Virus record (IMG/VR): IMGVR_UViG_3300037067_015007
Location: 1 to 64,000 of that record
Direction: 5' to 3' (one strand)
DNA from: a virus
Lineage: Duplodnaviria; Caudoviricetes
Length of the DNA stretch: 64,000 nucleotides
How positions within the stretch are numbered: position 1 is the first letter of the stretch; each line of letters starts with the position of its first letter. Position numbers and translations under genes: made by a program. Below the pieces are notes generated by a model. That model saw only the letters and a program-made list of their open reading frames with translations. It was not told where the DNA came from and did not search any database. Below, in pieces: positions 5,631-63,125 of this stretch.

Positions 5631-5651
5631 TCTACCTAAATTATACCACAC
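5631..5651 (-). promoter_or_regulatory. extended -10 early promoter (TGTGGTATAAT-N-TAGGTAG class)
   Basis: gtgtggtataatttaggtag; related motif at 10434, 12930, 24947. Confidence 0.65.
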
Positions 5652-22552: not shown

Positions 22553-23218
22553 TCACCTACTGTTATTTAGTGTTTTATTACTTTTCATTAAATTTTCCCC
22601 CGCCCATAAAGGTTGAAGATTTGTGTAATGACATGCTTTTAGAAACTCTTTCCTGTTTTGAAGATTGAAAGAGTCTAAAGGTATAATGTGGTCAATATGC
22701 CATCCATAAAATCCGTAGTTATCCCAATTCATACCCTCTTTCCATTTAGATTCCAAATAAGTTTTGAATTCAGGAATAGAACATCCGAGGTCTTTAACTG
22801 CGGAGCCTGATTTTTGATTATTTTTTATTGCTAAACGAATTCTGCTTCTTAAATAATGAGCGAGTTTAAAATGAATATCAGTTTTTAGTTTATTATTAAT
22901 TTGTGTATATATTTTTTCTTTATTATTTTGATAATATTTCTTTTTTTCTATTTTTATTTTCTCTTTGTTGTTTTGCCGATATAATTTTTTTCTATTTTTT
23001 ATCTCTTTTTTATGATTTTCATAATATTTTGTTTCTTGTATAATTATCTCTTTTTTATGATTTTCATAATATTTTTTTTGACGTTCTTTTTGTCTTTTTA
23101 ATTTTTCTTCTTTAGATAATGTTATTCGGGGTAAAATTCCTTTTTTTCTACGATATTTTTCTCTTCTTTTCTTTATTGCTTCTTTTCTTTCTTCATCAGT
23201 AAAGTATTTTTTCTTCAC
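22553..23218 (-). CDS. HNH homing endonuclease
   Basis: WHIDHIIPL...CHYTNLQPLW..EN; KKYYENHK repeats in N-terminus; GTG start after GGAGG. Confidence 0.9.
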   Translation of the reverse strand: MKKKYFTDEERKEAIKKRREKYRRKKGILPRITLSKEEKLKRQKERQKKYYENHKKEIIIQETKYYENHKKEIKNRKKLYRQNNKEKIKIEKKKYYQNNKEKIYTQINNKLKTDIHFKLAHYLRSRIRLAIKNNQKSGSAVKDLGCSIPEFKTYLESKWKEGMNWDNYGFYGWHIDHIIPLDSFNLQNRKEFLKACHYTNLQPLWAGENLMKSNKTLNNSR

Positions 23219-35441: not shown

Positions 35442-36011
35442 ATGAATTATAAACATCTTACTGAAGAAGAAAGAAAACAATCAAAACAAAGAAGAAATCA
35501 TAGATATTATGAAAATAATAAAAAAAAGATAATTATAGAAGTAAAAAAATATCGTAAAAAACATAAAGAAATTTTACAGAAGTACAGTAAAAATTATTAT
35601 CAAACTCATAAAAAGGAAATAAATACTAATCATAAAAATTATCGTGAAAATCATAGAAAAGAAATGTCCAAATATATTGTAAATAGATTAAAAACAGACA
35701 TAAATTTTAAACTTGCCCATAATTTACGAAATAGATTGAGAAAGGCTTTACATCGTAACCAAAAATCGGGTTCCGCAGTTGGAGATTTAGGTTGTTCTAT
35801 TTCTGCCCTCAAAACATATTTAGAATCCAAGTTTCAAGAGGGAATGGCTTGGGAGAATTGGAGTAAAACAGGTTGGCATATAGACCATATTATACCTTTG
35901 GATTCATTCAATCTTCAAAATAGGGAAGAATTTCTAAAGGCTTGTCATTACACAAATCTTCAACCACTTTGGGCTGAAGAGAATATTACTAAAGGAAACA
36001 ATTTATTATAA
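35442..36011 (+). CDS. HNH homing endonuclease
   Basis: WHIDHIIPLDSFNLQNREEFLKACHYTNLQPLWAEEN. Confidence 0.9.
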   Translation: MNYKHLTEEERKQSKQRRNHRYYENNKKKIIIEVKKYRKKHKEILQKYSKNYYQTHKKEINTNHKNYRENHRKEMSKYIVNRLKTDINFKLAHNLRNRLRKALHRNQKSGSAVGDLGCSISALKTYLESKFQEGMAWENWSKTGWHIDHIIPLDSFNLQNREEFLKACHYTNLQPLWAEENITKGNNLL

Positions 36012-36064
36012 TAAATAATATTGAAAAGGATTTTCTCTTTCACTTTCAATAAGGATTTCACAAT

Positions 36065-38785
36065 ATGGCAGAAGTTAATTTAAAAGACCTCGAAGCAATT
36101 CAAACCTCTCTGAAAAGCATTTCAAGCAAGACAACTTTTGATGAAGTCAAAAAATCCATTGTTAATCTTGCTGATTCCTTAAAAGACAGTTTGGAAGAAT
36201 TTCAAAAGAATGAAGCCAAAGCCCGACAGAGAAGAACCCAACTGAATGCAACCCATTTACAAGAAGAATTGAAAAAAAGACTTGACCTTAATAAAAAAAT
36301 AATGACTTGGGAAGCAAAACAGTTTGACGAAAGATTTGAATTGAACAAGCGTTATCATACAAGAGTAGTCAATGAACTGAAGAAGCAACATAAGGAAAGA
36401 GAGTTTCTTGAAAAAAGGATGTTCTTGCGCCAAGCCGCAATGAATAAAGAATTTTACGGAAAGATAGATGAGAGTTTTAAAAAATTAAACGATAGGACTT
36501 CAAAACTTGCAGGAAAACTTGACTCTGTTTTTGGTACAGGATTTTTTACTTCTCTTCAAAAAATTTCAAGTTTAATTACAGGATTCACTAAAAATGCTTT
36601 GAAACTAACACTTGGGGGCTTACAATTTATACAAACAGCAAAACAAGGTGGGATAAAAAAAGCCTTTGCACAAACCAAAATAGGTAAAGGAATTCATACT
36701 GCTAAACGAACAGTAAGACGAGCCGCAAGCACTATTAGAAAGATTACAGGTGCAGGGGTTAGTGGAAGAATAGAAAGTAGAAAGGAAAAAGAAGAAGCAG
36801 AAAAATCCCAATCAGGTATAGCCAAAGGAATAGGAAAAACAGGAAAGACACAAGAAGCCGCACTTATAGGCCAAGTTAAATTTTTTGAATGGTTTAAAAA
36901 ATTTGCAATATTTAAATGGCTTTGGGAAAAAGCAAATTTCGCCGCTGATAAATTATCCAAACTATTAGGCCTTGGTGGTGAAGGTGGGATTAAAGGTTTA
37001 TTCAAAGCAGGATTAGGTAAATTTTTTAGTACGGGAATAGGAAAATTTATAGGCGGTACTTCAGGCGGTCTCTTACAAAAAACTCTCACATCAATAGTGG
37101 GCCTAGGCGGGGCCATCGGCGGCATCAAAGGAGCCATCAAAGGAATAAGCCAATTTGGAGCTGTATCAAAAAAATATGGTGGGGGTGCTGAAGGCGATGC
37201 TATGGGTGTCGCTTATACTGCCAAAAAAATATCAAGTGGAATTTTATCAGGATTGACGTTGGGGTTAGTTTCTCCAAAAAGCATGGATAAACTAATCAAT
37301 GCTGGTAGTAGAATAACTGAAAAATTTGTGGATGCTTTATCTCCTAATCAAAAATTTTATGATAAACTCAGTCAAGCAAAAACAGGATTAAGTAAACGTT
37401 CAATAGATATAGGAAAGACATTGGATTCCATTATGGAAAAAACAGGGACAAAAGGCACGGGAGCCTCCCAAATGAAAGCAATTATGGCTGACAAGGAAAA
37501 ATGGAACAAACTCAATAAAGAAGAACAAGAACTTGTTAGAAAAAAAGTAGAAGGTGCCAAAAAACTTCAACAAGTTGCCCAACTCCCTGCAAATAAACCT
37601 GTAGAAAAGAAGGCCGCACAAGGATTCCCTGGTATTAAAACACCAACAAAACTTGGAGACCTTTTTGGAAAAATTAGTAGGCAAACCAATCTTACTGTAG
37701 GTGAAGGTGGTGAAGAATACTTAGCGGTTTTGAATAAAGAGCAATATAACGATATAAAAGGCTTACTAGGTACAAATTTACAATCTTTCAATTTATCGCA
37801 AAAATTAAAACCAAAACCAAAAACATTTATGCAAAATTTAGTTGATAAATTTAAACTATCAAAAAAGAAAGAATCTCCATTAGAAGATAAACCAAAAGAC
37901 CAACAAAATATGGCCCCTAGTGCGAATATTGATTTGAGTTCTTTCACCATTCCTAATATCAACACAAGTATTCAAAAATTACAACCAACATTTAAAACTA
38001 AATTACTTGGAATGTTAGGAGAATATAAAAAATTATCAGGAAAACAAGCTCCTGTTAATGAGGCTTATCGTGATACGGAATATCAAAAAAAATTATATGA
38101 AGCAGACATTGCCAAAAAAAGATTAAATCCTGCTCATAGAATGAAAACAAATAAACCAGGAACATCTCCTCATGAAAAAGGCATCGCTGCCGATTTGAAT
38201 ACTGCTGATTTGGATGCGATGGATTATAAGTATGGTTTAATAGATAAATATAAACTTAAAAGAGCATCAAGTTATTCTCGAATTGGTCCAGGTAAGAGAC
38301 ATGAAAGTTGGCATGTCCAAGCCGCAGAAGGTGCGGCATTTGATAAAGCACCTAAAGATTTCATGATGAAGGGTCATGCAGGAGAAGGGGCATTTGTTGC
38401 CAAGTCTAAAGAATTTACAACCGTATTCAAATATTTTGAAATGGGTAAGAAACTTGCGGAAGAGGCTTCAGGTGCGGTTAAAGATGTATCGATGGCATTT
38501 GCTAAGGATAAGCCAGGACAAGCATTGAAAAATATGCAAAAAGAACAAGGCATAGGAGAAGGTAAAGATTCAAAAATTGTTAAATTACTTTCCGATATCA
38601 AAACAGGAATTGAAAAAGGAGCAAAACCTTCTGAAGAAAAAGAGGCTTCAAAATCCTCACCATCTGTTCCACCGTCAACAAAAGGCGGCGAGGCCAACTA
38701 TAAATCAAGAAGTGATGTCTTTCCATCTGATACGATGTTTACAAATATGTACGCTCTAGTTTCGCAATTCAGCGGAGGATATTAA
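36065..38785 (+). CDS. tape-measure-like protein with M15 peptidase domain
   Basis: coiled-coil then Gly/Ala-rich helices; AYR...YQ, GTSPHEKGIAADL, ESWHVQ. Confidence 0.7.
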   Translation: MAEVNLKDLEAIQTSLKSISSKTTFDEVKKSIVNLADSLKDSLEEFQKNEAKARQRRTQLNATHLQEELKKRLDLNKKIMTWEAKQFDERFELNKRYHTRVVNELKKQHKEREFLEKRMFLRQAAMNKEFYGKIDESFKKLNDRTSKLAGKLDSVFGTGFFTSLQKISSLITGFTKNALKLTLGGLQFIQTAKQGGIKKAFAQTKIGKGIHTAKRTVRRAASTIRKITGAGVSGRIESRKEKEEAEKSQSGIAKGIGKTGKTQEAALIGQVKFFEWFKKFAIFKWLWEKANFAADKLSKLLGLGGEGGIKGLFKAGLGKFFSTGIGKFIGGTSGGLLQKTLTSIVGLGGAIGGIKGAIKGISQFGAVSKKYGGGAEGDAMGVAYTAKKISSGILSGLTLGLVSPKSMDKLINAGSRITEKFVDALSPNQKFYDKLSQAKTGLSKRSIDIGKTLDSIMEKTGTKGTGASQMKAIMADKEKWNKLNKEEQELVRKKVEGAKKLQQVAQLPANKPVEKKAAQGFPGIKTPTKLGDLFGKISRQTNLTVGEGGEEYLAVLNKEQYNDIKGLLGTNLQSFNLSQKLKPKPKTFMQNLVDKFKLSKKKESPLEDKPKDQQNMAPSANIDLSSFTIPNINTSIQKLQPTFKTKLLGMLGEYKKLSGKQAPVNEAYRDTEYQKKLYEADIAKKRLNPAHRMKTNKPGTSPHEKGIAADLNTADLDAMDYKYGLIDKYKLKRASSYSRIGPGKRHESWHVQAAEGAAFDKAPKDFMMKGHAGEGAFVAKSKEFTTVFKYFEMGKKLAEEASGAVKDVSMAFAKDKPGQALKNMQKEQGIGEGKDSKIVKLLSDIKTGIEKGAKPSEEKEASKSSPSVPPSTKGGEANYKSRSDVFPSDTMFTNMYALVSQFSGGY

Positions 38786-38786
38786 A

Positions 38787-39608
38787 ATGGCAGATAATTT
38801 TGTAGCCGCAGATGAAAGGAATATGACATATGCGGAAAGAGCAAATATCAGATTGGATTTTCATAGATGGATTCCGTCCAAAGAAAATCAAACACAAGAA
38901 GTAGAGGAAGATGTTTCTTCTCCTGCGGATGATATAGAGAGGTCATCTCAATCAACAAGCACTTGGTATCATTCTCTTTATGGATTTTTAAAAGACGAAG
39001 GTTTATCTTTAACACTCAATAATAAATTTGAAGTTGCTTTGAATTTAGTGGGTGGATTATTGGGGCAATTGGGTGAATTGACTGCGGGAGTTACTGCTCT
39101 TGGAAAAGCAATAACAGGTAATCAAACCCAAGGATATATTACAACAGGATTTGGAGAAAATGCAAGCATTATTTTGAATACACCTTTGTTTTGGCAAGGT
39201 ACAGACCCTATAGAATTTTCAGTTTCATTATTTCAAATTGCAGATAAAGAAAATCAAATCATAGAAAATTATCAAAGGATTTTAGAAGTTCTATCTCCAT
39301 CTACAGGCCAAGGGGCTATGACAGCCACTTTATCAGGAGAAGGGCCAGGAATTATATATGTGCATTATTTTCCTGAAGTTCAAAGTGGGACAGGAAACGC
39401 CGCCGCAGGACAAGGTAAAATTATATTCGGCCCGTGTCTTTGTAGAAGAGTAGATATGAGAATTGCGCCGCCATATTCATTTCAGTTTATGCCGATTGTA
39501 GGAGAATATACTTTCACTATGGTAACATCCAGAATACTTGACAGGTCTCAAATTCAATCACTTTTTAATAAACAGTTTCCATATCCAAAAACAGGAACCA
39601 TAACATGA
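38787..39608 (+). CDS. baseplate tail-tube cap/initiator-like protein (gp48/gp54-like)
   Basis: position after tape measure; P..W.G..P..F.....F, F.PCLC..V motifs. Confidence 0.55.
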   Translation: MADNFVAADERNMTYAERANIRLDFHRWIPSKENQTQEVEEDVSSPADDIERSSQSTSTWYHSLYGFLKDEGLSLTLNNKFEVALNLVGGLLGQLGELTAGVTALGKAITGNQTQGYITTGFGENASIILNTPLFWQGTDPIEFSVSLFQIADKENQIIENYQRILEVLSPSTGQGAMTATLSGEGPGIIYVHYFPEVQSGTGNAAAGQGKIIFGPCLCRRVDMRIAPPYSFQFMPIVGEYTFTMVTSRILDRSQIQSLFNKQFPYPKTGTIT

Positions 39609-39991
39609 AATACACATATACTAAAACTACAAAAAATATTTTAGATTTTTTCGGTACGAAAATAAGATACACTTATTCTAAACTTGACGGACTCATCTAC
39701 AAAGATGTAGCCAATAATACTTATTTTCAAACTGTGGATATGGAGTTAAAAATCGATAAAGGGACATATCGTGATTCTCAATTTTATACTATTACCGAAG
39801 AAACTAAATACCGTCCCGACCGCTTGGCTTATATTGCTTATGGGGATGAAACGCTTGCTTGGATAGTCTTGCGTTTCAATGACATCACAAATCCGTTTGA
39901 ACTTGAAGTTGGTCGGATAATAGAGATACCATCTCTCACTAGAGTAAACAATACCCTCCAAGCAAAGAGACAAAAATTGCAATACCGTTAA
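39605..39991 (+). CDS. baseplate wedge protein (T4 gp53-like, LysM-like)
   Basis: YRPDRLAY.AYGDE.L.W.VL.FNDI.NPF. Confidence 0.8.
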   Translation: MKYTYTKTTKNILDFFGTKIRYTYSKLDGLIYKDVANNTYFQTVDMELKIDKGTYRDSQFYTITEETKYRPDRLAYIAYGDETLAWIVLRFNDITNPFELEVGRIIEIPSLTRVNNTLQAKRQKLQYR

Positions 39992-40000
39992 CATGAAAAC

Positions 40001-40103
40001 AATAAATAATAGTGTAGGGACAAGGAGTAATTACCCATTCAGAATACCTCGTATATTCTGGATTACCTACACTATTTTAATAATTTTACGAGGGGGTTAT
40101 TGA
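40001..40103 (+). ncRNA. endonuclease-associated pseudoknotted leader RNA, copy 5
   Basis: P1 UAGUGUAGG/CCUACACUA, P3 CAGAAUA/UAUUCUG, loop CCUCGUA pairs with UACGAGG at the SD. Confidence 0.8.
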
Positions 40104-40685
40104 ATGTCAATACAAAAATATTTTACTAAAGAAGAAAGAAGAATTGCACACAATAAAACTAATGAAAAATATCGTAGAAGTAAAGAAATAGTAGCAAGAA
40201 AAAAATTCAATACGGAAAATGAAAGAATAGCAGCAGGAATAGAATATCAAAAACAATATTATCAAAACCACAAGAAAGAAAAATTAAAAAAAGAAAAAGA
40301 ATATCGTAAAAATCATAAAGAAGAAAGAAATTTATGGGCAAGAAAACATGATAATGAAAAATATGAAACGAATATTAAGTTTAAACTTGCTAAAATTTTA
40401 CGAAGTAGAATGCGTTTGGCAATTCACAATAATCAAAGAGCAGGTTCAGCAGTTCGAGACCTTGGATGTTCTATTCCTGAATTAAAAATATATTTAGAGA
40501 ATAAATTTCAAGAAGGAATGACTTGGGAAAATTGGAAACATAATGGTTGGCATATTGACCACGTTATTCCCTTGGATAACTTCAATCTTCAGAACAGGGA
40601 AGAGTTTCTAAAAGCATGTCATTACACTAATCTTCAACCTTTGTGGGCTGAAGAAAATTTAAGTAAACATAATAAGGTGATATAA
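40104..40685 (+). CDS. HNH homing endonuclease
   Basis: WHIDHVIPL...CHYTNLQPLWAEEN. Confidence 0.9.
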   Translation: MSIQKYFTKEERRIAHNKTNEKYRRSKEIVARKKFNTENERIAAGIEYQKQYYQNHKKEKLKKEKEYRKNHKEERNLWARKHDNEKYETNIKFKLAKILRSRMRLAIHNNQRAGSAVRDLGCSIPELKIYLENKFQEGMTWENWKHNGWHIDHVIPLDNFNLQNREEFLKACHYTNLQPLWAEENLSKHNKVI

Positions 40686-41954
40686 ATGCAAGGAATTGGG
40701 GATGCTCCAAAGATTACAATAAAAGGACATAAACAAGATATTAGTTTATCAAATTGGCACTTCGAAAATTTTCGTTATGTTGAAGATATCAACCTTGGAT
40801 TCCCAACGATTGAGTTCGCTTTGAGAGATAATACATACAAACTTTTACGAGAAGGATTATTCGGAGATGAAGAACTGATTGTCGAGGAATTCGTAAGAGA
40901 CCAATTTAAATTTGATAAAAAAAGTTTTACGATAAAGTCAATAGGGTCATTGGGTGAAGAACCAAAACCAATGGCAAGTCAAGTTGTCAAACTATTGGCA
41001 ATCGACAAAAATTATGATTCTATTTTAAAAAATCAAAAATCTGTTTATTTTCTTTCTAGCGAAAAGAAGAAAATTTCTGATTTATTGAAGAAACTTTTGA
41101 CACAAGTTGGTATTGTGGAAGCAGAAAATTTCAAACTAGTTATTGAAGAAACAGCACCTTTACTTGACCAAGGATTTCAAAATTTATTTATACCATACAG
41201 CAGAGACCCAATGAAGGTGATGAGAAAACTTTCCAATTACGCAATGACTCCTGATGGGACAGGAGCCTTTACGTTTTTCATCAATCGCAGAGGGTTAAAT
41301 TTCGTTCCTGTTAGTAAGTTATTTGTGGATATCGTTAAAGATAAAACGCCATATTTAAGAATTTCAGATATTCGTCAAACTTACGGAATCAGTAGTGCTA
41401 AACTTTCCACTTTCAATGCATTTTCGAATTTCATTACAGGTCATGAAAAGAAAATCATGGGGTTCAACCTGTACGAAAAGGAATACAACTCGATATGGTA
41501 TAAACCGAATGCAAAATACATCGAGCATTCAGAATATATAGATAAACCCGAAATCGTATCAAATGTCAAAACCATGCCATTACCCCAAGTTGCCAATAGT
41601 AATGCTATTCCTTTTTCGAAAGATTTCATTACAGGGAATATCAAAACATATTACACCCCTCTTGACAATCCAATGGCTCTGAAGGCATTTGGTGATAGAT
41701 TGTATTATTCACAAATGTTCAACTATGTATTAGAACTAAATGTGGACTTGATACAAACCATGCCCGATTTTGCTATTGGGGAAATGGTTGATGTAGAATT
41801 TTTTGTTACTGATAAAGATTCATGGTCAGCCTTGAATGGTGGTTGGCTTTTAAAAAGTTTCGCATATACATATCCTGGCGATAATGTAACTTTGAAGTTG
41901 ACAAGAATTGGGATTGGTACTCTTCCCGAACAGTACATAAAAGTGGGTGAATAA
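40686..41954 (+). CDS. baseplate hub protein (gp27/gpD-like)
   Basis: position between gp53 and gp5; Y.EDI, FAIGEMV..., G.WL.K.....Y......L.L.R. Confidence 0.6.
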   Translation: MQGIGDAPKITIKGHKQDISLSNWHFENFRYVEDINLGFPTIEFALRDNTYKLLREGLFGDEELIVEEFVRDQFKFDKKSFTIKSIGSLGEEPKPMASQVVKLLAIDKNYDSILKNQKSVYFLSSEKKKISDLLKKLLTQVGIVEAENFKLVIEETAPLLDQGFQNLFIPYSRDPMKVMRKLSNYAMTPDGTGAFTFFINRRGLNFVPVSKLFVDIVKDKTPYLRISDIRQTYGISSAKLSTFNAFSNFITGHEKKIMGFNLYEKEYNSIWYKPNAKYIEHSEYIDKPEIVSNVKTMPLPQVANSNAIPFSKDFITGNIKTYYTPLDNPMALKAFGDRLYYSQMFNYVLELNVDLIQTMPDFAIGEMVDVEFFVTDKDSWSALNGGWLLKSFAYTYPGDNVTLKLTRIGIGTLPEQYIKVGE

Positions 41955-43800
41955 GATGTTTGATTTGGACAGCATTAAATCCTTAGAAGATACACAACGC
42001 AGTAATTTTTATCGTGCCCAAGTGATATCTTTGGACGACCCTTTAAATTTGAACAGAATACAAATTAATATTTTTGGCTTAACGGATGATATCCCAAGCG
42101 AAAGTTTGCCTTGGTGTGAATTGCAATTTACAGCAGGATTTTCAACTTACCCTATTCTTAATGACATTGTTTGGCTCTTTTTTGAAGGCGGTGATATTTT
42201 TCGTCCTGTATATTTAGGTACAATTTATGCGGGGCTTGATATCGATACGGATACAGGTTATGAGAAATTTTCTTTAGCAGCAGGAAGTATAACGGAATCC
42301 GCAACAGGGGTATTAGGTATAGGATACGATTTTAAAGGTATTGATGATAAAGACTCTTATCGTTCAGCCTTGCGAACTGTAAACAATGTTGAGGAAGATA
42401 AACACTTGACATTGAAAGATACAATTTCCCATTACGATGCCATTTCTTCAGGAAATACTTGGTGGAGAAAATTTTCAGGATTAGATTCTGTTAATACTGA
42501 TGATATAGCACCAGGACAAACTTTATGGCTTTCAGGGGTTGACCCCACTTATGGTAAATGTCCCTTCAAAGAGAAAAAAGTTTATCCGTGGTATGAACTT
42601 CGAGAAACTAATCAAAATAGTTGGAAATCAATTTATGGTGGATGGAGATTTTTTACAGAGACAGACTTAATTAATGGTTTAGGTTCTTTCCCTGACAATA
42701 TTCGCCGTACATATATGAAGCGTGTAAGAAATTGGGCAAATTGGACAGTTTGGAAATCACGAAAAGAAATATGGGTTCCTGAGTCGGGTCTTTATAAAAA
42801 TGCAGTTCCTAAAAGTTGGAATTTTATTCCTATGTCTGTTACTCTTTATTCCGACCCTGAATTATTCAGCGTATCTTTTTCTAGAGATGCAATAAACACC
42901 GACCCCGAAACATTAGATGAGCGTCCTGGTGGGGATTTACATACTGAAGAAATGCAGGGATTTGTCAACATTAAACCGTTCCCATTAGGGACAATGAAAA
43001 TAAAAAATCGCAAGTTTTATAAGCAATCTACATGGATGAGTTATGATGGAAAATCTGCAATAGAACTAGATGATAATGACAACTATGAACGATTAAGATT
43101 AGATTATAACTACAGCGAAGGCGGTCTTGAATTTTCCCGTGTCGGTTGGCATGGCTTGAATATATGGACAGAAGGTTCATTCATGATGAGAGCATGGGGC
43201 AGACAAGGAAATGGTAAAGGGGAAGGAATGTTTGTTGATAGTGCTATTGAATGTATTGACCATTCTCTTCTCATTAGTTCCAATAAAGCATTAATGCTTG
43301 GTGGAGATAGTTCAGCATCTTTGACATCTCTTGGCCCTGCGGGTGTCAGGTCAAAAATGAATGTAACTTCCATCACAGGTGGTGGTGGAGTAGTTATTCA
43401 AACAGAAGCAGGATTATCAACAAGAGAAGGAGTAAGTGATTTTAATAGAGGTATTTGGATGGGTTCACCTATTATTGGTGGTAATGGTCAAGCAGGTGGA
43501 GATGGTGGAATGAACGGGTGGATGCCTGTGTTATGTGATAAAGATAAAGGTGAAGCAGAAAAATATTTCAGAGCACTTAATAGTGTATTGCTTATGGTGA
43601 GAAAATTAGCGTCTATGTGTTATCAACAACCAATGGTTACAGACCAATATACAGCAGTTCCACTTGCCGTCCAACTGCGGACTTGGGCAATAGGAGCCAT
43701 GCAAGTTGTTAAAGATATTAAAGAAGGTTCCCTTTCAGCAGTATCAGTTATGGCAGGAAGTGAAAAAATTAACATAGAGGGTGCCGTAAAAGGTAAATGA
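41947..43800 (+). CDS. baseplate central spike (gp5-like)
   Basis: OB-fold YRAQV...DDPL.L.RIQ...LPW...P.LND.VW.FFEGGD..RPVYLG. Confidence 0.8.
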   Translation: MNKMFDLDSIKSLEDTQRSNFYRAQVISLDDPLNLNRIQINIFGLTDDIPSESLPWCELQFTAGFSTYPILNDIVWLFFEGGDIFRPVYLGTIYAGLDIDTDTGYEKFSLAAGSITESATGVLGIGYDFKGIDDKDSYRSALRTVNNVEEDKHLTLKDTISHYDAISSGNTWWRKFSGLDSVNTDDIAPGQTLWLSGVDPTYGKCPFKEKKVYPWYELRETNQNSWKSIYGGWRFFTETDLINGLGSFPDNIRRTYMKRVRNWANWTVWKSRKEIWVPESGLYKNAVPKSWNFIPMSVTLYSDPELFSVSFSRDAINTDPETLDERPGGDLHTEEMQGFVNIKPFPLGTMKIKNRKFYKQSTWMSYDGKSAIELDDNDNYERLRLDYNYSEGGLEFSRVGWHGLNIWTEGSFMMRAWGRQGNGKGEGMFVDSAIECIDHSLLISSNKALMLGGDSSASLTSLGPAGVRSKMNVTSITGGGGVVIQTEAGLSTREGVSDFNRGIWMGSPIIGGNGQAGGDGGMNGWMPVLCDKDKGEAEKYFRALNSVLLMVRKLASMCYQQPMVTDQYTAVPLAVQLRTWAIGAMQVVKDIKEGSLSAVSVMAGSEKINIEGAVKGK

Positions 43801-55136: not shown

Positions 55137-56805
55137 AATAGGAACTGCGGGGCAAATTATTAATTTTAATTATGTCCACGAATTTATTGCACAAAATTTG
55201 AATAAGATTCTTTATTCAACTTTCACACCAGGCGTTTTAAAATTAGTTTTATCTGATTTTTCAGTAATCACAACAAAAGTTGAAATTCTTGAATTTTCAG
55301 GATTAATTAGACCATACAATAAAAACTTCATTGTAAAAGTAGATACAATGAACACTATAACGGTATTAACAGATTCTACAAAACCATATTTAGTAGCTCG
55401 TATGGATTGGATAACGCCGCCTGATGGATATGATTATGAAACGGCAACTTATGGAGTATCAGGATATTCTGGATATTTTGAAGATACTGCAATATCTTGT
55501 GAATCATTTGACCCTGTTGGAGATAAAATAATTTCAACAGACCATAAACTTGTGATAGGAGATGTGATTCGTTTTAGTGCAACGGTCGGCGGGGTTACAA
55601 AAGATGTAGATTATTATGTAGTCAATACCGATTCAAACTCATTTCAAATTTCTACGACAGCAGGTGGGACTGTTCTTGATATCATTAGCACTTTGTCAAT
55701 TACCAATACATATCGAAAAATGAATTCTCATATTGTGAGATTTGATATGGTTGCTGAAAATGACATCAATCCCGATTATGATGTCATTTTAGTGAAATTG
55801 GATTTCGGCCCTGGTGGAGCGAAAGTGGTACTTAATTATGCGGAACAAACCCAAGTTTATTTGAATGATTATTGCATAAATTATAATTTAGTTCAGCGGT
55901 CGGGAGTTCGAACTTTAGAAGGAACCAATACAGACTATATTGGCATTTTAGGATTTAGTGGGACATCAGGAATATATGATTCAACAGATGAAACAATCGA
56001 ACGTCATGTGGGCCACGCTTCAGGGCACATTCCTTGGAGTGAAGTATCGGGTTATACACCTGTAATGAATTATGGCCTCAATGCTCAATATGTAAATGGA
56101 ATAACAGTAAGTAATGCGGATAATAGTATCGGATTAAAAAATAATATTTTGTCAAAAAATATGGTCGCCGCTAGATTATTTTTAAATGGATTCGAATATG
56201 CAATAGGACAATCAGGAGTAACAACCTATTCGGGATTTTCAGGCTATACAGGAATTTCGGGATGGAGTGGCGTTTCGGGATATTCGGCTTATTCAGGATA
56301 TTTGCCCCTCAACAATGCCGTGTTGCAGACTTCATTGAATGCGGAATATTTCGGGGGATATAAAATTTCAGACTTTACTCCCGCAGGGCATACCCATAAT
56401 CTTGATGAAATTGCCGATGGAGTATCATATATAAGAATGAGAGGAGTAGATGTTGACGGTTTGGTAACAACCGATGGTCTGACTGATGGGGCATTGGAAT
56501 ATCGGCATCAAAGTATTTCCGTTCCATTTCGCTATGATGGAGCAACAGAAAAGAAAATGTTCGCATTGGCAGGAGAAATAATGAAGAATGGTTCGACAAC
56601 AGTAGCATTTAGAAAAACTTTCACTTCAGCTCCACGAGTGTTTATTCTAAATAATGAAAGTGATGAATGGAAAGCTGTAGATGAGGTATCAATAACTACG
56701 ACAGGATTTGTAATTCATCACCATGAAAATACTTCAGGTACTTCATTAGTAGCAGACACAACACTTTTTAGAACTCATTGGATTGCGATTGGAGAGTTGT
56801 CTTAA
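55126..56805 (+). CDS. tail fibre / baseplate protein, paralog 3
   Basis: GQIINFNY, LNAEYFGG, HTHNLDEI, SGYSG inserts, HWIAIG end. Confidence 0.7.
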   Translation: MQGKIGTAGQIINFNYVHEFIAQNLNKILYSTFTPGVLKLVLSDFSVITTKVEILEFSGLIRPYNKNFIVKVDTMNTITVLTDSTKPYLVARMDWITPPDGYDYETATYGVSGYSGYFEDTAISCESFDPVGDKIISTDHKLVIGDVIRFSATVGGVTKDVDYYVVNTDSNSFQISTTAGGTVLDIISTLSITNTYRKMNSHIVRFDMVAENDINPDYDVILVKLDFGPGGAKVVLNYAEQTQVYLNDYCINYNLVQRSGVRTLEGTNTDYIGILGFSGTSGIYDSTDETIERHVGHASGHIPWSEVSGYTPVMNYGLNAQYVNGITVSNADNSIGLKNNILSKNMVAARLFLNGFEYAIGQSGVTTYSGFSGYTGISGWSGVSGYSAYSGYLPLNNAVLQTSLNAEYFGGYKISDFTPAGHTHNLDEIADGVSYIRMRGVDVDGLVTTDGLTDGALEYRHQSISVPFRYDGATEKKMFALAGEIMKNGSTTVAFRKTFTSAPRVFILNNESDEWKAVDEVSITTTGFVIHHHENTSGTSLVADTTLFRTHWIAIGELS

Positions 56806-56812
56806 ATGAAAA

Positions 56813-56910
56813 TAATAAATAGTAGTGTAGGGACAGGGAGTCATGACCCTTTCAAGATGTCCACTCATCCTGAATTACCTACACTATATTTTGACCAAGT
56901 GGAGGGGCAA
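56813..56910 (+). ncRNA. endonuclease-associated pseudoknotted leader RNA, copy 7
   Basis: P1 UAGUGUAGG/CCUACACUA, P3 CAAGAUG/CAUCCUG, loop UCCACU pairs with AGUGGA at the SD. Confidence 0.8.
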
Positions 56911-57456
56911 ATGGATAATCAAAACGGAACGATTTATATAGCCACCAATCTAATCAATAGAAAGCAATATGTGGGGCAAACTATTAGAACTTTGAAAGAA
57001 AGAATAAACTGTCATAAATCTTCTCTTTCTTATTGTTTTGGAAATGCTATCAAAAAATACGGAATTCAAAATTTTAAATGGGTTCCTATTGAATATCCTA
57101 TTGAAGAATTAGATAAAATGGAGTGTTTTTGGATTCAAACACTAAACACCATTAGGCCTAATGGATATAATTTACAATATGGTGGACAAAAATCTCATTC
57201 TTATTCAGAAGAATTAAAAAGAAAAATGAGAGAAAATCATACAGATTATTCAGGAAAAAATCACCCTCGTTTTGGTTTACATTGGGATGAAGAACACAAA
57301 CAAAATCAAAGTAAAAAATTAAAAGGTAGGTTTATAGGTGAAAAAAATCCTAATTTTGGCAATAAATGGACACAAGAACAAAAAGATGCATTGAGTAAGA
57401 AAAAGAAAGAAATGCATCAAAATAAGATACAAAGAATAAATAATATAGAGGAGTAA
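56911..57456 (+). CDS. GIY-YIG homing endonuclease with NUMOD3 repeats
   Basis: GTIYIATN.IN.KQYVGQT, PNGYN, NPNFG. Confidence 0.9.
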   Translation: MDNQNGTIYIATNLINRKQYVGQTIRTLKERINCHKSSLSYCFGNAIKKYGIQNFKWVPIEYPIEELDKMECFWIQTLNTIRPNGYNLQYGGQKSHSYSEELKRKMRENHTDYSGKNHPRFGLHWDEEHKQNQSKKLKGRFIGEKNPNFGNKWTQEQKDALSKKKKEMHQNKIQRINNIEE

Positions 57457-57462
57457 GATAAA

Positions 57463-58566
57463 ATGGCAAAATATAAATCAGTTGCGGGTTATACAGGAAC
57501 AAATTATGACCAAAGTGTTATCTGGTCATATAAAACGGACATAGATAGAAATGTTCTTGCAAGATGGTTTGTTAATATTTACGAACAAGGGGTATTAAAA
57601 TACACTCCATCGGCTACAGGCCAAGTGGGGCCGACTATTGCGGCAGGAACATCTTTCTTGATTAAACAAAAAGATGCAACAAGTCCAAATGAAAAAATAG
57701 CCAAAGTCGATATGATTTATGACTATACTCTTCCTGTTTATGGTGATGCTGCGGGGTATGCTTTAATTGCTATGTGGGAAAACGCCGCAGACGAATATCG
57801 AGGCGTTGAATTTTATTTAAAAACCCCTGCTGAAATGGTATTAATAGTTGCCGCAGGATACAATTATGTTCAGTTCGGAACAGTAGAAATAGATTCAACG
57901 GCAGGGGCACCGACCCCAGGTTGGGTGGTTTCAAACACTACAGTTGGAATGACCCAAGCAGGTATGTCATCAGGATTGTTAGGTTATTCAGGATATAGCG
58001 GTATAGGTTTATCGGGATTCTCAGGTTATTCAGGAGACCCTGCCGCCAATTCAGGATTCTCAGGCTGGTCAGGAACATCGGGAGAAAAAGGTGATATCGG
58101 TCCAGGCGGTGGAGATTCAGGATTTTCAGGATGGTCGGGTGTATCAGGATATAGTAGTACAGTCCCAGGAAGTCAGGGAACTTCAGGATATTCAGGAAGG
58201 TCTGGCTTTTCAGGACTCACAGGTTCAGAATGTATTCTATTGACTTGTTCAGACGAAACTACTCCTTTGACGACAGGGACAAAAATAACATTCAGAATGC
58301 CTTATGCTATGAGTTTCTTATATGGTAGAGTCAAAGCAAGTTTAACAACTGCAAGTAGTGTAGGTATTACTGATATCGATGTCCGTAAGGCAGGACTGAC
58401 TATTTTATCAGCGTCAATATCTATGGGGCCAACCGAAGAAGTAAAAACAGGTGCAGGATTTTCTACAACTTCTTTAGTTGAAAATGATAAAATAACTGTT
58501 TATTTATCTTCAGTAGGAACAGGGGCAACGGGACTTAAAGTTTATTTGATTGGAAACAAGGCATAA
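57463..58566 (+). CDS. tail fibre-like protein with Gly-X-Ser collagen-like segment
   Basis: SGYSG/SGFSG run, then TTGTKITFRMPY...GLKVYLIG C-terminal domain. Confidence 0.7.
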   Translation: MAKYKSVAGYTGTNYDQSVIWSYKTDIDRNVLARWFVNIYEQGVLKYTPSATGQVGPTIAAGTSFLIKQKDATSPNEKIAKVDMIYDYTLPVYGDAAGYALIAMWENAADEYRGVEFYLKTPAEMVLIVAAGYNYVQFGTVEIDSTAGAPTPGWVVSNTTVGMTQAGMSSGLLGYSGYSGIGLSGFSGYSGDPAANSGFSGWSGTSGEKGDIGPGGGDSGFSGWSGVSGYSSTVPGSQGTSGYSGRSGFSGLTGSECILLTCSDETTPLTTGTKITFRMPYAMSFLYGRVKASLTTASSVGITDIDVRKAGLTILSASISMGPTEEVKTGAGFSTTSLVENDKITVYLSSVGTGATGLKVYLIGNKA

Positions 58567-58582
58567 AAATGGAGATTGAAAT

Positions 58583-59794
58583 ATGATTGGATTTGTTGAC
58601 CCTTATCAATTTACTAATGTTCCTGTAGGAGTTATTATTCCTTGGGCATCGGGAGCGCATATACCGCCTACGGGTTGGACTTTCTTTACTGCTCCAAATC
58701 CAGGTGTTGGTGGATTTAGCGGATGTTACATAAGAGCCGCAGGGGGAACAGTAGGTGTAAATACAACGGGAATTGGAGGCACTCCTGCGGGGCATGTAAG
58801 ATTTGATTCACAACCTGATGGGACACATCTTGGTACAGGCGGGGCAGCAAACCAAGCAGAAGCATATACGCAAGATGTACAATGCCCTGCCCATAATCCT
58901 TCTTGGAGATTAGAAGGCGGCGAAGAATCTGGAAATCATACACATACTTTAGATGCAACACCTGTAATGGGATATACACAATTTCAATTTATTAGGGCTT
59001 CAGTACAAGTTGAAAAATTTCCGATAAACGGTGTTCTCCTAAACACTACACACTCTGCAAGTTCTCTTCAATCAATTTATACTCAAATAGCAAGTACAGG
59101 AAAATATCTTCGAGCTGCCGATAGATATTCTTCCGCAGAAACTTCATGTCCGACAACAATGGACAATACTCTTGATAATGGAAAACACAGACATTATTGG
59201 TGGCCAGCATATTGGGCTTTAGGCCCAGGTGGGACAAATAGCCAAAATATTTTTTATAGTTCTGTTGGGCCAAATTGGGACGGATGGACAGGATATCATT
59301 TGCATACAATCAACTCAGTTAGTTTAGTAGATAATATTAAAAAAATATATACAACTGCATGGACAAATCAAACAACAGAATTTACAGGATTCAGAGGAAT
59401 GCTTGCATTTTGGGATGGAATAACACCTGCAACTTGTCCTGATGGATGGTCTCTCTGCGATGGTTCTAATGGAACAATTGATATGAGGGAATATTTTATT
59501 ATGATGGGTGGTATAACAGAAACAACGCCTTTGGGATTCAAAACAGGAACTAACCAAATTAATGTTGTACCCGCATCGGGAAATATGTTAGCGACTCAAA
59601 ACTTTACCAATCTTCCTGGTGGTCAGGGTCATAGGCATACTGAAAATGAATATGTAGATATTAGTGGTGGTTATAGATTAACAAGTGCATGGCATATGCC
59701 TTTTGATGTGAACCATTGGCACGGTTCAACACAAGGACTTAGCCTATCATATTATCCACAATATTATGGACTTTATGTTATTCAAAAATTATAA
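58583..59794 (+). CDS. tail collar-domain fibre protein
   Basis: VPVG.I..W....IPP.GW and P.GW.LCDG.NGT.D.R collar motifs. Confidence 0.75.
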   Translation: MIGFVDPYQFTNVPVGVIIPWASGAHIPPTGWTFFTAPNPGVGGFSGCYIRAAGGTVGVNTTGIGGTPAGHVRFDSQPDGTHLGTGGAANQAEAYTQDVQCPAHNPSWRLEGGEESGNHTHTLDATPVMGYTQFQFIRASVQVEKFPINGVLLNTTHSASSLQSIYTQIASTGKYLRAADRYSSAETSCPTTMDNTLDNGKHRHYWWPAYWALGPGGTNSQNIFYSSVGPNWDGWTGYHLHTINSVSLVDNIKKIYTTAWTNQTTEFTGFRGMLAFWDGITPATCPDGWSLCDGSNGTIDMREYFIMMGGITETTPLGFKTGTNQINVVPASGNMLATQNFTNLPGGQGHRHTENEYVDISGGYRLTSAWHMPFDVNHWHGSTQGLSLSYYPQYYGLYVIQKL

Positions 59795-59795
59795 A

Positions 59796-60338
59796 ATGAA
59801 AAAGAAATATTTTACAGAAGAAGAAAAAATAATTGCTAAAAAAGAATATCAAAAGAAGTATAAAAAAACGCATAAAGAAGAAAGAAAAAAATATGATAAA
59901 AAGTATTGTCAAAATCACAAAGAAAATATAGCCATAAAGAAGAAAGAATATTATGAAAACCATAAAGAAAAAACAAATATATATCAAAAAGAATATAGAA
60001 ATAATAGATTAAAAAAAGATATTAATTTTAGAATGATTTGCTATTTACGAAGTAGAATGTATTGGTCAATTAGAGGAAACTATAAATCAGGCTCCGCAGT
60101 CAGAGACCTCGGTTGTCCTATTTCTGAATTTAAGACCTATATAGAATCAAAGTTCCAAGACGGAATGACTTGGGAAAATTGGAGTAAAACGGGTTGGCAT
60201 ATAGACCATATTATACCTTTAGATTCTTTCAATCTTCAGAATAGGGAAGAATTTCTAAAAGCCTGTCATTATACAAATCTTCAACCTATGTGGGCTGAAG
60301 AGAATTTGAGAAAAGGGGGTAAAGTATGCCGAACATAA
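59796..60338 (+). CDS. HNH homing endonuclease
   Basis: WHIDHIIPLDSFNLQNREEFLKACHYTNLQPMWAEEN; no leader RNA upstream. Confidence 0.9.
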   Translation: MKKKYFTEEEKIIAKKEYQKKYKKTHKEERKKYDKKYCQNHKENIAIKKKEYYENHKEKTNIYQKEYRNNRLKKDINFRMICYLRSRMYWSIRGNYKSGSAVRDLGCPISEFKTYIESKFQDGMTWENWSKTGWHIDHIIPLDSFNLQNREEFLKACHYTNLQPMWAEENLRKGGKVCRT

Positions 60339-61165
60339 ATGCCCGTGAAATCATGGGGCTAGGAGCCGTATCAGGAATATCAGGATACAGCGGAAAAGTT
60401 GGAACATCAGGATATTCAGGAATTTCAGGAATATCAGGATGGAGTGGGGAAAATCCTGGTGCATCGGGACTTTCAGGATATAGTGCATGGTCAGGATTTT
60501 CAGGAATAAGTGCATGGTCAGGATTTTCAGGAATAAGTGCATGGTCAGGATTTTCAGGAGCAACAGGGGCATCAGGTTTTTCAGGAGTAGCAAGCGCAGC
60601 AACTTCAGGATGGTCTGGACCAAGTGGATTTTCAGGTTACTCAGGTAAAAGTGGATTCAGCGGCTACTCAGGTGTCTCAGGATTTTCAGGAGCAGGTACA
60701 AGTGGATTTTCTGCATGGAGTGGATATAGTGGATATAGTGGGTATAGTGGTAAAAGTGGGTATAGTGGCCCTTCAGGATATTCAGGCCCAAGCGGATATT
60801 CAAGTATAAGTGGATACAGCGGCCCTTCAGGATTTTCAGGATATAGTGCCGCCAACCTTGGATATTATTCAGCAACTTTTGATGCCTCTGCTTCTTGGTC
60901 AGATGCAACAACTTATTACAGAGTTGATTTTACTCACAATCTTAATTCACAAAAACTTCTCGTTCAAGTTTGGGATGAAACTATTTCACCAGGAAATTCG
61001 GGATATGACCCTGTTCCTGTAGCACCATATTATGAAACACAAACAATTCCTAAACCGTTCCAACTTGTAAAAAGAGGAGCAAATGTTCTCAGATTGCAAG
61101 TAAACCAAACACCAGGAGTTGATGGACGTTTTGCAGGTAGAATTGTTATTGTAAGTGTACCGTAA
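60326..61165 (+). CDS. collagen-like (Gly-X-Ser)n virion protein
   Basis: about 165 aa of SGYSG/SGFSG/SAWSG, then F.HNLN...LVQVWD domain. Confidence 0.8.
   Translation: MPNINAREIMGLGAVSGISGYSGKVGTSGYSGISGISGWSGENPGASGLSGYSAWSGFSGISAWSGFSGISAWSGFSGATGASGFSGVASAATSGWSGPSGFSGYSGKSGFSGYSGVSGFSGAGTSGFSAWSGYSGYSGYSGKSGYSGPSGYSGPSGYSSISGYSGPSGFSGYSAANLGYYSATFDASASWSDATTYYRVDFTHNLNSQKLLVQVWDETISPGNSGYDPVPVAPYYETQTIPKPFQLVKRGANVLRLQVNQTPGVDGRFAGRIVIVSVP
60482..60559 (+). repeat. 27-bp tandem repeat x3
   Basis: agtgcatggtcaggattttcaggaata repeated, encodes SAWSGFSGI. Confidence 0.85.
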
Positions 61166-61191
61166 TTTTTCGATAAGGATAAATAATTTAG

Positions 61192-61515
61192 ATGGGCTTA
61201 CAAGCAGGAGAGATACTTCTAAACAATAATCAATCAGCATATGCTGACCTGCTAACCTTCTACACTTTAACTTTCAAAGGTGCGAAAATAGCATACACCA
61301 TAATTCGAGGCGACCTAGTTGAACAAGGCGATATTTATTTATCATACAATCGATTTGCTGATACTGCACAAATAACAACAGAAGCAAATTTTGACGATAC
61401 AGGTGTTCAATTTTGCGCTTCAGTTAATGAAGGGTATATTCGTCTTTTGTACACATCGACAAATACGGGAATAACTCCCATTTTCAAACATAACATAACA
61501 TTCTTTCCACTATAA
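61192..61515 (+). CDS. small virion-type hypothetical protein
   Basis: 107-aa ORF behind a late motif. Confidence 0.65.
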   Translation: MGLQAGEILLNNNQSAYADLLTFYTLTFKGAKIAYTIIRGDLVEQGDIYLSYNRFADTAQITTEANFDDTGVQFCASVNEGYIRLLYTSTNTGITPIFKHNITFFPL

Positions 61516-63125
61516 TGAGCAAGAGAATATTTCAAAACTGCGGTAAGGTTTTTACAATAGAAGATAGTGGTCTAATTACCGCAGGAGATACTTCTCAATA
61601 TGACACATTAGTAACAAGCGATAATGATATTCCAAATAAAGCATATGTAGATTCTCATGGTGCTGGTGCATCAGGATGGTCAGGATATTCTGGACCAAGT
61701 GGTTATTCTGGACCAAGTGGGTATTCAGGTATATCAGGATTTTCAAGTCAAAGTGGCTATTCAGGAGTCAGCGGATTTACAGGTTATTCAGGAGTTAGTG
61801 GTTATTCAGGATATTCAGGAGTAAGTGGATATTCAGGATATTCAGGAGTCAGCGGTTATAGTGGAACAAGTGGATATTCAGGCTATTCAGGCGTAAGTGG
61901 TTATTCAGGGGTAAGCGGTTTCTCTGCCTACAGCGGAATAAGTGGATATTCAGGCGTAAGTGGTTATTCAGGTAAAAGTGGATATAGCGGCTACAGCGGG
62001 GCTAGTGGTTTTAGTGGATTGGCTTCAATTGGGGGAGCATATGTTTACACTAAACTAGTTGGTGATGCAAATGCCACTTGGACTATCGTTCATAACTTAG
62101 GTCAACAATATGTTAATGTACAATTAATTAATGGAGCAACAGGAACGGCATTTGATGGAACTTATGATTTTCCAACAATAACTTTTGATAATGCAAACCA
62201 ATTAACAGTTACATTTGGTTCTGCACAATATGGTTGGGCTTCAGTTGTATCAGGCGGCGGCATTAGTGGATACTCAGGTTCAGATGCACAGCAATCAGGA
62301 TATAGCGGTGTTTCAGGATATAGTGGAGTAAGTGGATATAGTGGAGTCTCAGGATTTTCTGGAACAGTAACAAAGGGAAATACAGGAGATTCAGGATATA
62401 GCGGTTATTCAGGGGTCAGCGGTTACAGCGGAGTCAGCGGTTATTCAGGTAAAAGTGGATATAGCGGTTACTCAGGCGTAAGTGGTTACTCTGCATACTC
62501 AGGCGTAAGTGGTTATTCAGGCTATTCAGGGACTAGCGGTTATTCAGGCAAAAGTGGATATAGCGGTTACTCAGGCGTATCAGGCACTTCGGGTTGGAGC
62601 GGTACTTCAGGCACAAAAGGCAATACAGGCGCAACAGGCACATCGGGCTACTCAGGCACATCAGGCGCAAAGGGTGCATCAGGCGCAAAAGGCACATCGG
62701 GCTACTCAGGCACATCTGGATACTCCGGAGTTGGTACTACGACAGGAACTTGGACTCCAACAATTACAGGGGGCACTACAGAAGGAACAACGACTTATAC
62801 TATTCAAGATGGTTATTATATTCAAATAGGAAAATTAGTATATGCAACTTGTAGGGTAACTTGGACAAATGCTACAGGCACAGGCACAATAAAGTTAGAT
62901 GGTCTTCCTGCAACAGTTAAAAATGTTACAAACGGAACGCAAGTTATAACGATATATGCTCAAAGTGGGATTGCACATACTGCGGGAAATTTAATACAAG
63001 GATATTTAGTTCCTAATACAACTTATGGACTTATGACCCAAGTGGATAAAGATGGAGTACTTGATAATTTATATATAGTTACAGCAGGTTCATTCAGACT
63101 TGGGATAACATATTTGGCAGAATAG
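61515..63125 (+). CDS. collagen-like (Gly-X-Ser)n tail fibre
   Basis: two long SGYSGVSGYSG blocks, W.I.HNLG domain, C-terminal GTWTP...Y.QIGKLV fibre domain. Confidence 0.85.
   Translation: MSKRIFQNCGKVFTIEDSGLITAGDTSQYDTLVTSDNDIPNKAYVDSHGAGASGWSGYSGPSGYSGPSGYSGISGFSSQSGYSGVSGFTGYSGVSGYSGYSGVSGYSGYSGVSGYSGTSGYSGYSGVSGYSGVSGFSAYSGISGYSGVSGYSGKSGYSGYSGASGFSGLASIGGAYVYTKLVGDANATWTIVHNLGQQYVNVQLINGATGTAFDGTYDFPTITFDNANQLTVTFGSAQYGWASVVSGGGISGYSGSDAQQSGYSGVSGYSGVSGYSGVSGFSGTVTKGNTGDSGYSGYSGVSGYSGVSGYSGKSGYSGYSGVSGYSAYSGVSGYSGYSGTSGYSGKSGYSGYSGVSGTSGWSGTSGTKGNTGATGTSGYSGTSGAKGASGAKGTSGYSGTSGYSGVGTTTGTWTPTITGGTTEGTTTYTIQDGYYIQIGKLVYATCRVTWTNATGTGTIKLDGLPATVKNVTNGTQVITIYAQSGIAHTAGNLIQGYLVPNTTYGLMTQVDKDGVLDNLYIVTAGSFRLGITYLAE

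Follow-up and report, generated by a model that had tools for sequence, protein, structure and literature searches.

A predicted cis-acting RNA leader encloses the Shine-Dalgarno sequence of homing endonuclease genes in T4-like phages and might link their translation to upstream structural genes

In a clade of large T4-like phages, sequence comparison identifies a cis-acting RNA leader of about 95 nt that travels along with free-standing genes for homing endonucleases. Its fold, the pairing between two of its loops, the position of the Shine-Dalgarno sequence (SD) within this fold and its exclusive link to endonuclease genes are established by comparison of the copies. The copy described here (39993-40103) is located between a gp53-like baseplate gene and an HNH-type nuclease gene. 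According to the preferred reading, to which a probability of about 0.5 is given, the leader is a conserved cis-acting RNA whose fold masks the nuclease SD, and a 36-codon pass-through frame lets ribosomes coming from gp53 open this fold. Homing endonucleases need low and late expression, as they otherwise harm the phage that carries them. To our knowledge, control of free-standing endonuclease genes is known for a few T4 genes only, each of which possesses a hairpin of its own. In this clade of large environmental T4-like phages, one portable RNA module appears to serve unrelated nucleases of at least four families. The leader displays textbook covariation, yet it is absent from Rfam.

The analysed stretch of DNA, called the window, comprises positions 1-64,000 of record IMGVR_UViG_3300037067_015007. 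The whole contig has 89 kb and originates from an uncultured T4-like phage. The neighbouring genes are of T4 type and include gp53-like and gp5-like genes. A blastn search with 38787-43800 against 50,697 phage records yielded one 86-nt match at chance level only and, therefore, no cultured relative. The locus comprises the following features:

39605..39991, plus strand: gp53-like baseplate wedge gene, a 128-aa ORF matching Pfam PF11246 (Phage_gp53, E=2.3e-5)
39993..40103, plus strand: 36-codon leader frame from ATG 39993 to TGA 40101-03, crossing the whole RNA fold
40001..40008, plus strand: AATAAATA, a T4-type late-promoter-like motif; TAAATA (40003-08) is invariant in alignment A1
40104..40685, plus strand: HNH-type homing endonuclease gene, 193 aa (PHROG phrog_1035; HNH-type motif)
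40686..41954, plus strand: downstream baseplate-module gene, 422 aa (from the ORF list; directly behind gp53 in the nuclease-free relative L092)

The first-pass annotation had placed the leader ATG 1 nt past the gp53 stop and had described a 36-codon frame whose TGA abuts the HNH ATG. Both are found in the sequence: the gp53-like gene ends with TAA 39989-91, C 39992 follows, the leader ATG starts at 39993, and TGA 40101-03 is directly adjacent to ATG 40104. The HNH TAA (40683-85) in turn adjoins the ATG of the next baseplate-module gene, for which an SD (AAGGTGA) is encoded by the last HNH codons. The present junctions are TAA-c-ATG at the leader, TGA-ATG at the HNH gene and TAA-ATG at the next gene. 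For the 422-aa downstream gene, no family match was found. In L092, the gp53-like gene is followed directly by the next gene and overlaps it as TAATG. From this junction without nuclease, the inserted cassette can be delimited as 39992..40685, and the overlap indicates that the baseplate module is normally translationally coupled. By this comparison, the cassette sits exactly at a translationally coupled junction. At L092:1780-1795, the nuclease-free junction between gp53 and the next gene has the sequence TATAAATAATG. ATAAATAAT is common to this junction and the cassette's 5' end and might have served as microhomology during insertion.

The element 39993-40103 had been annotated as copy 5 of a repeated leader, and it does belong to a repeated family. 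Seven copies are present in the 64-kb window and 11 in the 89-kb contig. Further copies were found in a complete 223-kb relative (7), in a 169-kb relative (5) and elsewhere. The family was searched with a short DNA pattern, then with a covariance model (R1) and then in a metagenome scan, which together gave about 75 distinct leaders across related phage and metagenome contigs. The IMG/VR contigs stem from landfill and groundwater samples. Numbers reported below refer to an alignment of 50 copies (A1), to a tally of 56 copies or to the set of 75 copies obtained after the metagenome scan. Rfam 15 at gathering score gave no match in the whole 64-kb window, riboswitches, ribozymes and HEARO included. 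When 39900-40200 was searched at E≤10, the sole match was a miRNA with 11.9 bits on the other strand, which is due to chance. A literature search did not find the leader family described.

Leader copies are always located directly before homing endonuclease genes, which belong to at least four families. All ten downstream proteins sampled match endonuclease families, and several of these are named homing endonuclease. The downstream genes are of the GIY-YIG/NUMOD3 kind, of the HNH/EndoVII-like kind, of a kind combining DUF7487 and DUF559, or belong to a second HNH group. The 193-aa ORF at 40104 matches PHROG phrog_1035 ('endonuclease VII', E=2.6e-9) and phrog_28061, and its translation displays an HNH-type motif (HIDH...NLQPLW...N..K) at the C-terminus; no sequence match was obtained in Pfam, NCBIfam or PDB. 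The closest relative of the copy 5 leader, L020, precedes a different nuclease and has different flanks. Compared across contigs, the leader is a separate module that is not bound to any single nuclease family. The possibility that it is an intrinsic part of the HNH gene family was rejected: at E≤0.001, none of nine HNH homologues from other contigs has a leader. With E up to 5 and filters off, the same nine give weak partial matches only, the best one with E=0.033. Besides the gene at 40104, the window contains these HNH paralogues:

35442-36008: leader-bearing HNH paralogue
22556-23218, minus strand: leader-bearing HNH paralogue
59796-60338: leaderless HNH paralogue

The DNA of the third paralogue (ATG 59796) is 76-78% identical to the copies at 35692 and 40366. 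Its ATG is located 1 nt past the TAA of a 403-aa upstream ORF (TAA-a-ATG, 59792-98) and has no SD. It looks like a natural leaderless comparator, apparently coupled directly to the upstream gene. One of the nine leaderless HNH homologues, in L075, overlaps with its upstream gene in an ATGA.

The fold of the leader is composed of the following elements, with coordinates given for copy 5:

40008..40076, plus strand: three-way junction (RNAalifold consensus and pair counts, 50 copies)
40008-18 with 40066-76, plus strand: P1
40024-25 with 40034-35, plus strand: P2 core
40038-46 with 40054-62, plus strand: P3
40047..40053, plus strand: P3 loop CCUCGUA, 5' side of the pairing between the two loops
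40076..40104, plus strand: hairpin P4 (40076-87 with 40093-40104; MFE fold)
40087-93, plus strand: arm UACGAGG in the P4 loop, complementary to the P3 loop
40090-96, plus strand: SD GAGGGGG, in the P4 3' strand and the loop-loop arm

In P1 and P3, 97.7% of the alignment cells are paired, compared to 88% with shuffled partners and 41-53% with slid partners. Eleven pairs have changes on both sides (117 cells). Within these helices, about 25 cells contain G-U versus 3 with A-C. This excess means that the folded RNA is the sense strand of the mRNA. The junction bases GACA (40019-22), GG/CC and AUUA are invariant across the 50 copies, GACA and AUUA strictly or nearly so. Folded alone, copy 5 has -27.6 kcal/mol (z=-3.0). 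The P4 3' strand comprises the SD along with the spacer, the leader stop codon and the first base of the HNH start codon, and both prediction and comparison place the SD in base pairs of a stable RNA structure.

The P3 loop (6-7 nt) is fully Watson-Crick complementary to the arm in 50/50 copies, which together have 40 distinct loops; a control with mismatched partners gave a mean of 3.6 nt. The arm is located just 5' of the SD or overlaps it. All 11 loops of the 89-kb contig are mutually different. The complementarity CCUCGUA:UACGAGG (40047-53 and 40087-93), which had been noted before, was recovered as the single match of the paired pattern CCTCGTA/TACGAGG in the window, compared to none in 100 shuffles. 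The first-pass annotation had called it a pseudoknot. The pairing itself is perfect in all 50 copies; since the 3' partner resides in the P4 loop, a loop-loop (kissing) contact between P3 and P4 describes it better. A P4-like stem with at least 6 pairs is present in 90% of the copies and exists in several covarying types. The excess over the mismatched-partner control is modest (7.6 pairs versus 6.3), as the linkers are rich in U and resemble each other within a subfamily. Due to this high control value, P4 is less secure than the other helices.

Three copies (L010:8596, L034:8854 and L039:9167) are truncated or decayed. Their 5' half with TAAATA, P1, P2 and part of P3 runs into nuclease-like coding sequence or into the contig end, which suggests deletions removing the part with P4 and SD.

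Each leader copy begins with TAAATA, mostly in the form AAAACA(A/C)TAAATA. The same motif is present 20-30 nt upstream of several ordinary ORFs and is enriched 3.7-fold within 120 nt upstream of co-oriented ORFs. Late promoters of T4 have the consensus TATAAATA (PMC2988022), and gp55, the late sigma factor of T4, has a homologue in related genomes (E about 5e-7). Based on the likeness to this consensus and on the gp55 homologue, the TAAATA motif is a probable late promoter. The leader ATG (39993) lies 10 nt upstream of TAAATA. This means that only read-through transcripts would carry the ATG. Between a promoter-like motif at 36011 and the leader, no terminator-like site was found on the plus strand (36011-40104), so that read-through transcripts with the leader ATG are plausible. 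TAAATA is located 5' of the entire fold. A transcript with T4 spacing is predicted to lack outer P1 pairs only and to keep P3, P4 and most of P1.

On the minus strand, a sigma-70-like site (TTGACA-16-TAAAAT, 11/12) at 40110..40083 is directed antisense into the leader and is the best one in 34-44 kb. It is probably a chance site, because the DNA is AT-rich and the site is neither conserved (only 4/50 copies score ≥10/12) nor are such sites enriched over shuffles. A conserved antisense promoter of the kind that would match plasmid antisense-RNA systems was rejected on the same count of 4/50.

Two near-identical leaders, L070:1501-1607 and L066, differ in the promoter motif (TAAATA versus TGAATA). 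The variant motif gains an in-frame ATG within the old motif, and both leaders are fused in frame to a GIY-YIG-like ORF. In addition, a repeated motif of about 32 nt (CTACCTAnATTATACCACA...) is found in intergenic regions at positions 5632, 10433, 12929 and 24947 of the window and at 77170 of the genome, and once directly upstream of a leader copy without start codon. This motif might serve as a promoter (early or middle) or as a different signal.

The open frame of copy 5 taken alone is weak evidence; 5% of the dinucleotide shuffles of the same 105 nt are stop-free, too. The pattern across the family exceeds chance. TAAATAATAG is crossed without a stop in one frame only, and this is the frame of the 36-codon ORF. 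In 24/50 copies, an ATG or GTG in this frame is located at exactly -10 or -13 nt from TAAATA, and the neighbouring offsets have almost none. Such a start is present in 29 leaders of the 75-copy set. In 24/29 leaders with start versus 20/46 without (p=0.0008), no stop interrupts the frame until 5 nt or less before the nuclease start, and the frame reaches the arm in 27/29 versus 24/46 (p=0.0003). For the two remaining frames, the stop-free share is 9-19% of the copies, and 13% and 9% among those with start. Upstream of ATG 39993, no SD-like motif was found.

In the 56-copy tally, 25 copies have a start. In 10 of them, or 12 if TTG starts are counted, the frame continues in frame into the nuclease. 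The other endings are a stop-ATG as in copy 5 (3 copies), an ATGA (2) and a stop 4-5 nt before the nuclease start (5). In L020, the frame is kept and ends at the same codon as in copy 5, with TAA instead of TGA. On the upstream side, 13 leader starts are located -4 to +1 nt relative to the stop codon of a long ORF in the same orientation, and 7 lie within the upstream ORF 17 nt before its stop, a position less canonical for reinitiation. An abutting upstream ORF was found in 21/25 copies with start versus 18/31 without, which is a modest difference (p=0.045). A conserved role of the TGA in ATGA/GTGA as stop of the upstream gene was rejected, as it is used this way in 3 copies only.

Variability at the three codon positions is 0.69/0.69/0.71, i.e. 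without periodicity. If the frame is used, it is therefore the passage of the ribosome that matters and not the peptide. A protein-coding leader was rejected, since codon periodicity is missing, changes that preserve pairing rewrite the peptide, and every aligned copy contains an internal SD-ATG. Sequence searches of Pfam, NCBIfam and PDB gave no match for the 36-aa product.

The association between start and open frame was also examined with independent pairs on the tree. Using 75 copies and well-supported branches, 8 pairs differ in their start state, and the result is not significant: on average, 3.2 pairs differ in the expected way, 0.6 in the opposite way, and 4.2 show no difference. With 50 copies, there are 4 pairs and the test is underpowered. 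For both the start state and the open-frame state, the tree implies 17 or more changes. In 46/75 copies (about 60%), an ATG/GTG start is absent and the fold is kept perfectly. Consequently, the frame is an optional add-on and neither the core mechanism nor essential for the family, and the startless copies argue against a general need for leader translation in nuclease translation. Frame 0 is open in about 42% of the startless copies; thus, the signal may in part be due to inheritance or to constraints of the RNA sequence.

According to the preferred reading, the fold would block direct binding of the 30S subunit and keep the nuclease scarce, in analogy to the RBS hairpins of T-even endonuclease genes. 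The 36-codon frame would serve as a pass-through frame and not as a peptide gene. On late read-through transcripts, a ribosome would terminate gp53 translation at TAA 39989-91, restart at ATG 39993 without an SD and unwind P1, P3 and P4 in turn. It would then terminate at TGA 40101-03 directly on ATG 40104, where it could reinitiate. Nuclease output would be a small fixed fraction of structural-gene translation, and transcripts from the leader's own TAAATA late promoter would lack the ATG and stay masked. Translational coupling of the nuclease to the structural gene had been proposed in the first-pass annotation. It is in accord with the recurrent start, the open frame and the abutting stops; the non-significant independent pairs and the roughly 60% of startless copies speak against it. 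Because of this test and the location of the ATG upstream of a probable late promoter, coupling is only considered plausible. The leaderless HNH paralogues in coupling layouts, TAA-a-ATG at 59792-98 and ATGA in L075, speak for it.

Several other explanations share parts of this scheme. It is possible, although somewhat doubtful, that the fold masks the SD while the 36-codon frame is incidental, being the 5' edge of the cassette and free of stops due to RNA sequence or shared ancestry; nuclease would then be made when the fold opens on rare occasions. This agrees with the startless majority that keeps the fold, with a frame 0 that is stop-free in startless copies well above frames 1 and 2, with the outcome of the independent-pair test, the lack of codon periodicity, the ATG upstream of the promoter-like motif and the ease with which a single frame of this length stays open in shuffles. 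An incidental frame is harder to reconcile with a start tightly fixed in position and frame amid otherwise unrelated flanks, with two states that changed so often and are still associated in raw counts (p=0.0008), and with stops clustering at the nuclease start or no more than 5 nt from it. Moreover, the frame is open across the hypervariable loop, the arm and the AT-rich linker, in which the other frames have 1.4-1.8 stops. A leader that encodes an N-terminal extension of the nuclease or a functional small protein, with the RNA structure being secondary, is very improbable. In-frame fusion in 10-12 copies with start would suit it, as would the finding that leader frame and nuclease frame coincide in 13/20 open copies with start versus 1/3 expected (p=0.004). 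Against this stand the stop that separates both frames in copy 5, the 40 different loop-arm pairs that alter the peptide freely while pairing is kept, the equal variability at the codon positions, an SD suitably spaced from the internal ATG in all aligned copies, and a 36-aa product without NCBIfam match.

The direction of control has also been considered. Plasmid replication initiators are translated in a leader-peptide-dependent and pseudoknot-assisted manner in IncI-alpha (repY/repZ), IncB (repB/repA) and R1 (tap/repA), according to the passages of PMC8053102 on these plasmids. The same passages, which cite Asano and Mizobuchi (1998) and Praszkier and Pittard (2002), state that the IncI-alpha/IncB pseudoknot activates translation. 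As in these plasmids, the leader frame ends at or over the main start, the RBS is located in a hairpin, the main product would be made by reinitiation, and the loop of a distant hairpin has its complement immediately 5' of the RBS, here in 50/50 copies. No sequence or family relationship exists, and the leaders have no conserved promoter for an antisense RNA. Since these plasmids are the closest mechanistic precedent and their loop-to-RBS pairing is activating, which runs against the masking direction, an activating role has to be weighed for the leader: after a leader ribosome has opened P4, the refolded P3 loop would capture the arm and prevent P4 from forming again, the SD would stay free and reinitiation at the abutting start would be promoted. 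The parts are the same (leader frame, RBS hairpin, distant complementary loop), and the plasmid pseudoknot is described in those passages of PMC8053102 as essential for initiation. Nonetheless, activation is unlikely here. The 3' partner is hidden in a stem in the plasmids, whereas the arm of the leader is in the P4 loop, so that pairing can form without opening P4. Copies without leader frame keep the pairing equally strictly. Furthermore, the pairing often covers the first bases of the extended SD, e.g. GGAG or AAGG, and a conserved antisense promoter is missing (4/50 copies with ≥10/12). Still less probable is a sensor function of the three-way junction, in which binding of a small molecule or of a protein from phage or host would shift the contact between the loops and thereby time nuclease synthesis, with the frame being secondary. 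The invariant unpaired junction bases in 50 copies exceed what a plain RBS hairpin needs, and one shared regulator would predict an element common to unrelated nuclease families. However, these bases fit equally well to a tertiary packing that joins the P3 and P4 loops, searches up to E=10 revealed no riboswitch or other family in Rfam, and no candidate ligand or binding protein emerged.

The preferred reading, a masking fold opened by ribosomes in the leader frame, has its nearest relatives in T-even phages. RBS-sequestering hairpins combined with late promoters are found at I-TevI, I-TevII, I-TevIII, segB and mobE of phage Aeh1 (PMC2988022). Like these, the leader belongs to a T4-type phage, precedes a homing endonuclease gene, is predicted to bury the SD in RNA structure and has a late-promoter motif immediately upstream, presumably for low and late nuclease expression. 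The T-even hairpins are single and gene-specific, whereas here one conserved fold of about 95 nt is used for at least four nuclease families at about 75 loci. Unlike the hairpins, it comprises a three-way junction, P4 and a loop-loop contact of 6-7 bp. In T4, the late promoter resides inside the hairpin so that late transcripts escape it, whereas the motif of the leader precedes the whole fold. A leader reading frame is not described for the T4 cases in PMC2988022.

Coupling of free-standing endonuclease genes to their neighbours is documented as well: nrdA and mobE overlap in UAAUGA, and overlaps exist at segC, segF and mobA (PMC2988022). The leader resembles the nrdA/mobE type in that neighbouring stop and start codons overlap or abut and that low nuclease synthesis via reinitiation is proposed. 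The leaderless HNH paralogues of this phage clade have exactly such an nrdA/mobE-type layout. In contrast to nrdA/mobE, coupling at the leader would proceed via an intermediate 36-codon frame over structured RNA with two stop-start junctions (TAA-c-ATG and TGA-ATG). HEARO, the IscB omega RNA (an Rfam family), is likewise a structured RNA beside HNH nuclease genes on mobile DNA. Unlike HEARO, the leader has no Rfam match, lies in the leader region of an mRNA, overlaps with the SD and is also found with GIY-YIG and other nucleases; nothing suggests a role as guide RNA. Among known cases of RBS masking or coupling, the leader stands out, as far as can be judged from comparison, by a multi-helix fold that is conserved, by its set of different loop pairs and by its association with unrelated nuclease families.

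Taken further, and more tentatively, the leaders might represent a class of cis-regulatory RNA, a 'ribosome-relay gate', in which distinct loop addresses avoid cross-pairing and the frame meters nuclease by ribosome flux; this is rather doubtful at present. If it applies, 40 or more distinct loop pairs of 6-7 nt would keep up to a dozen paralogous leaders apart. Where a cassette follows a translated gene, the sequence-indifferent frame would allow ribosomes coming from this gene to open the gate, the nuclease dose would be set by the ribosome flux on the late structural gene, and the coupling of the interrupted operon would be preserved. Should the relay operate, a selfish cassette could enter the stop-start overlap of two baseplate genes and leave coupling unbroken. 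The mutually distinct kissing-loop pairs are a possible parts list for engineered translational control.

Some further observations concern the surroundings of the endonuclease genes. TAAATA promoter-like motifs together with an SD for the next structural gene were observed at 57436-57465 and 36011-36067, inside or directly past the 3' ends of endonuclease genes. This has a parallel in T4, where promoters that serve downstream genes lie within seg and mob genes. In the tail-fibre region of the window (56200-62750), long arrays of 9-nt periodic repeats encode collagen-like tracts of Gly-X-Ser/Tyr, and endonuclease cassettes are located between the genes that carry these tracts.
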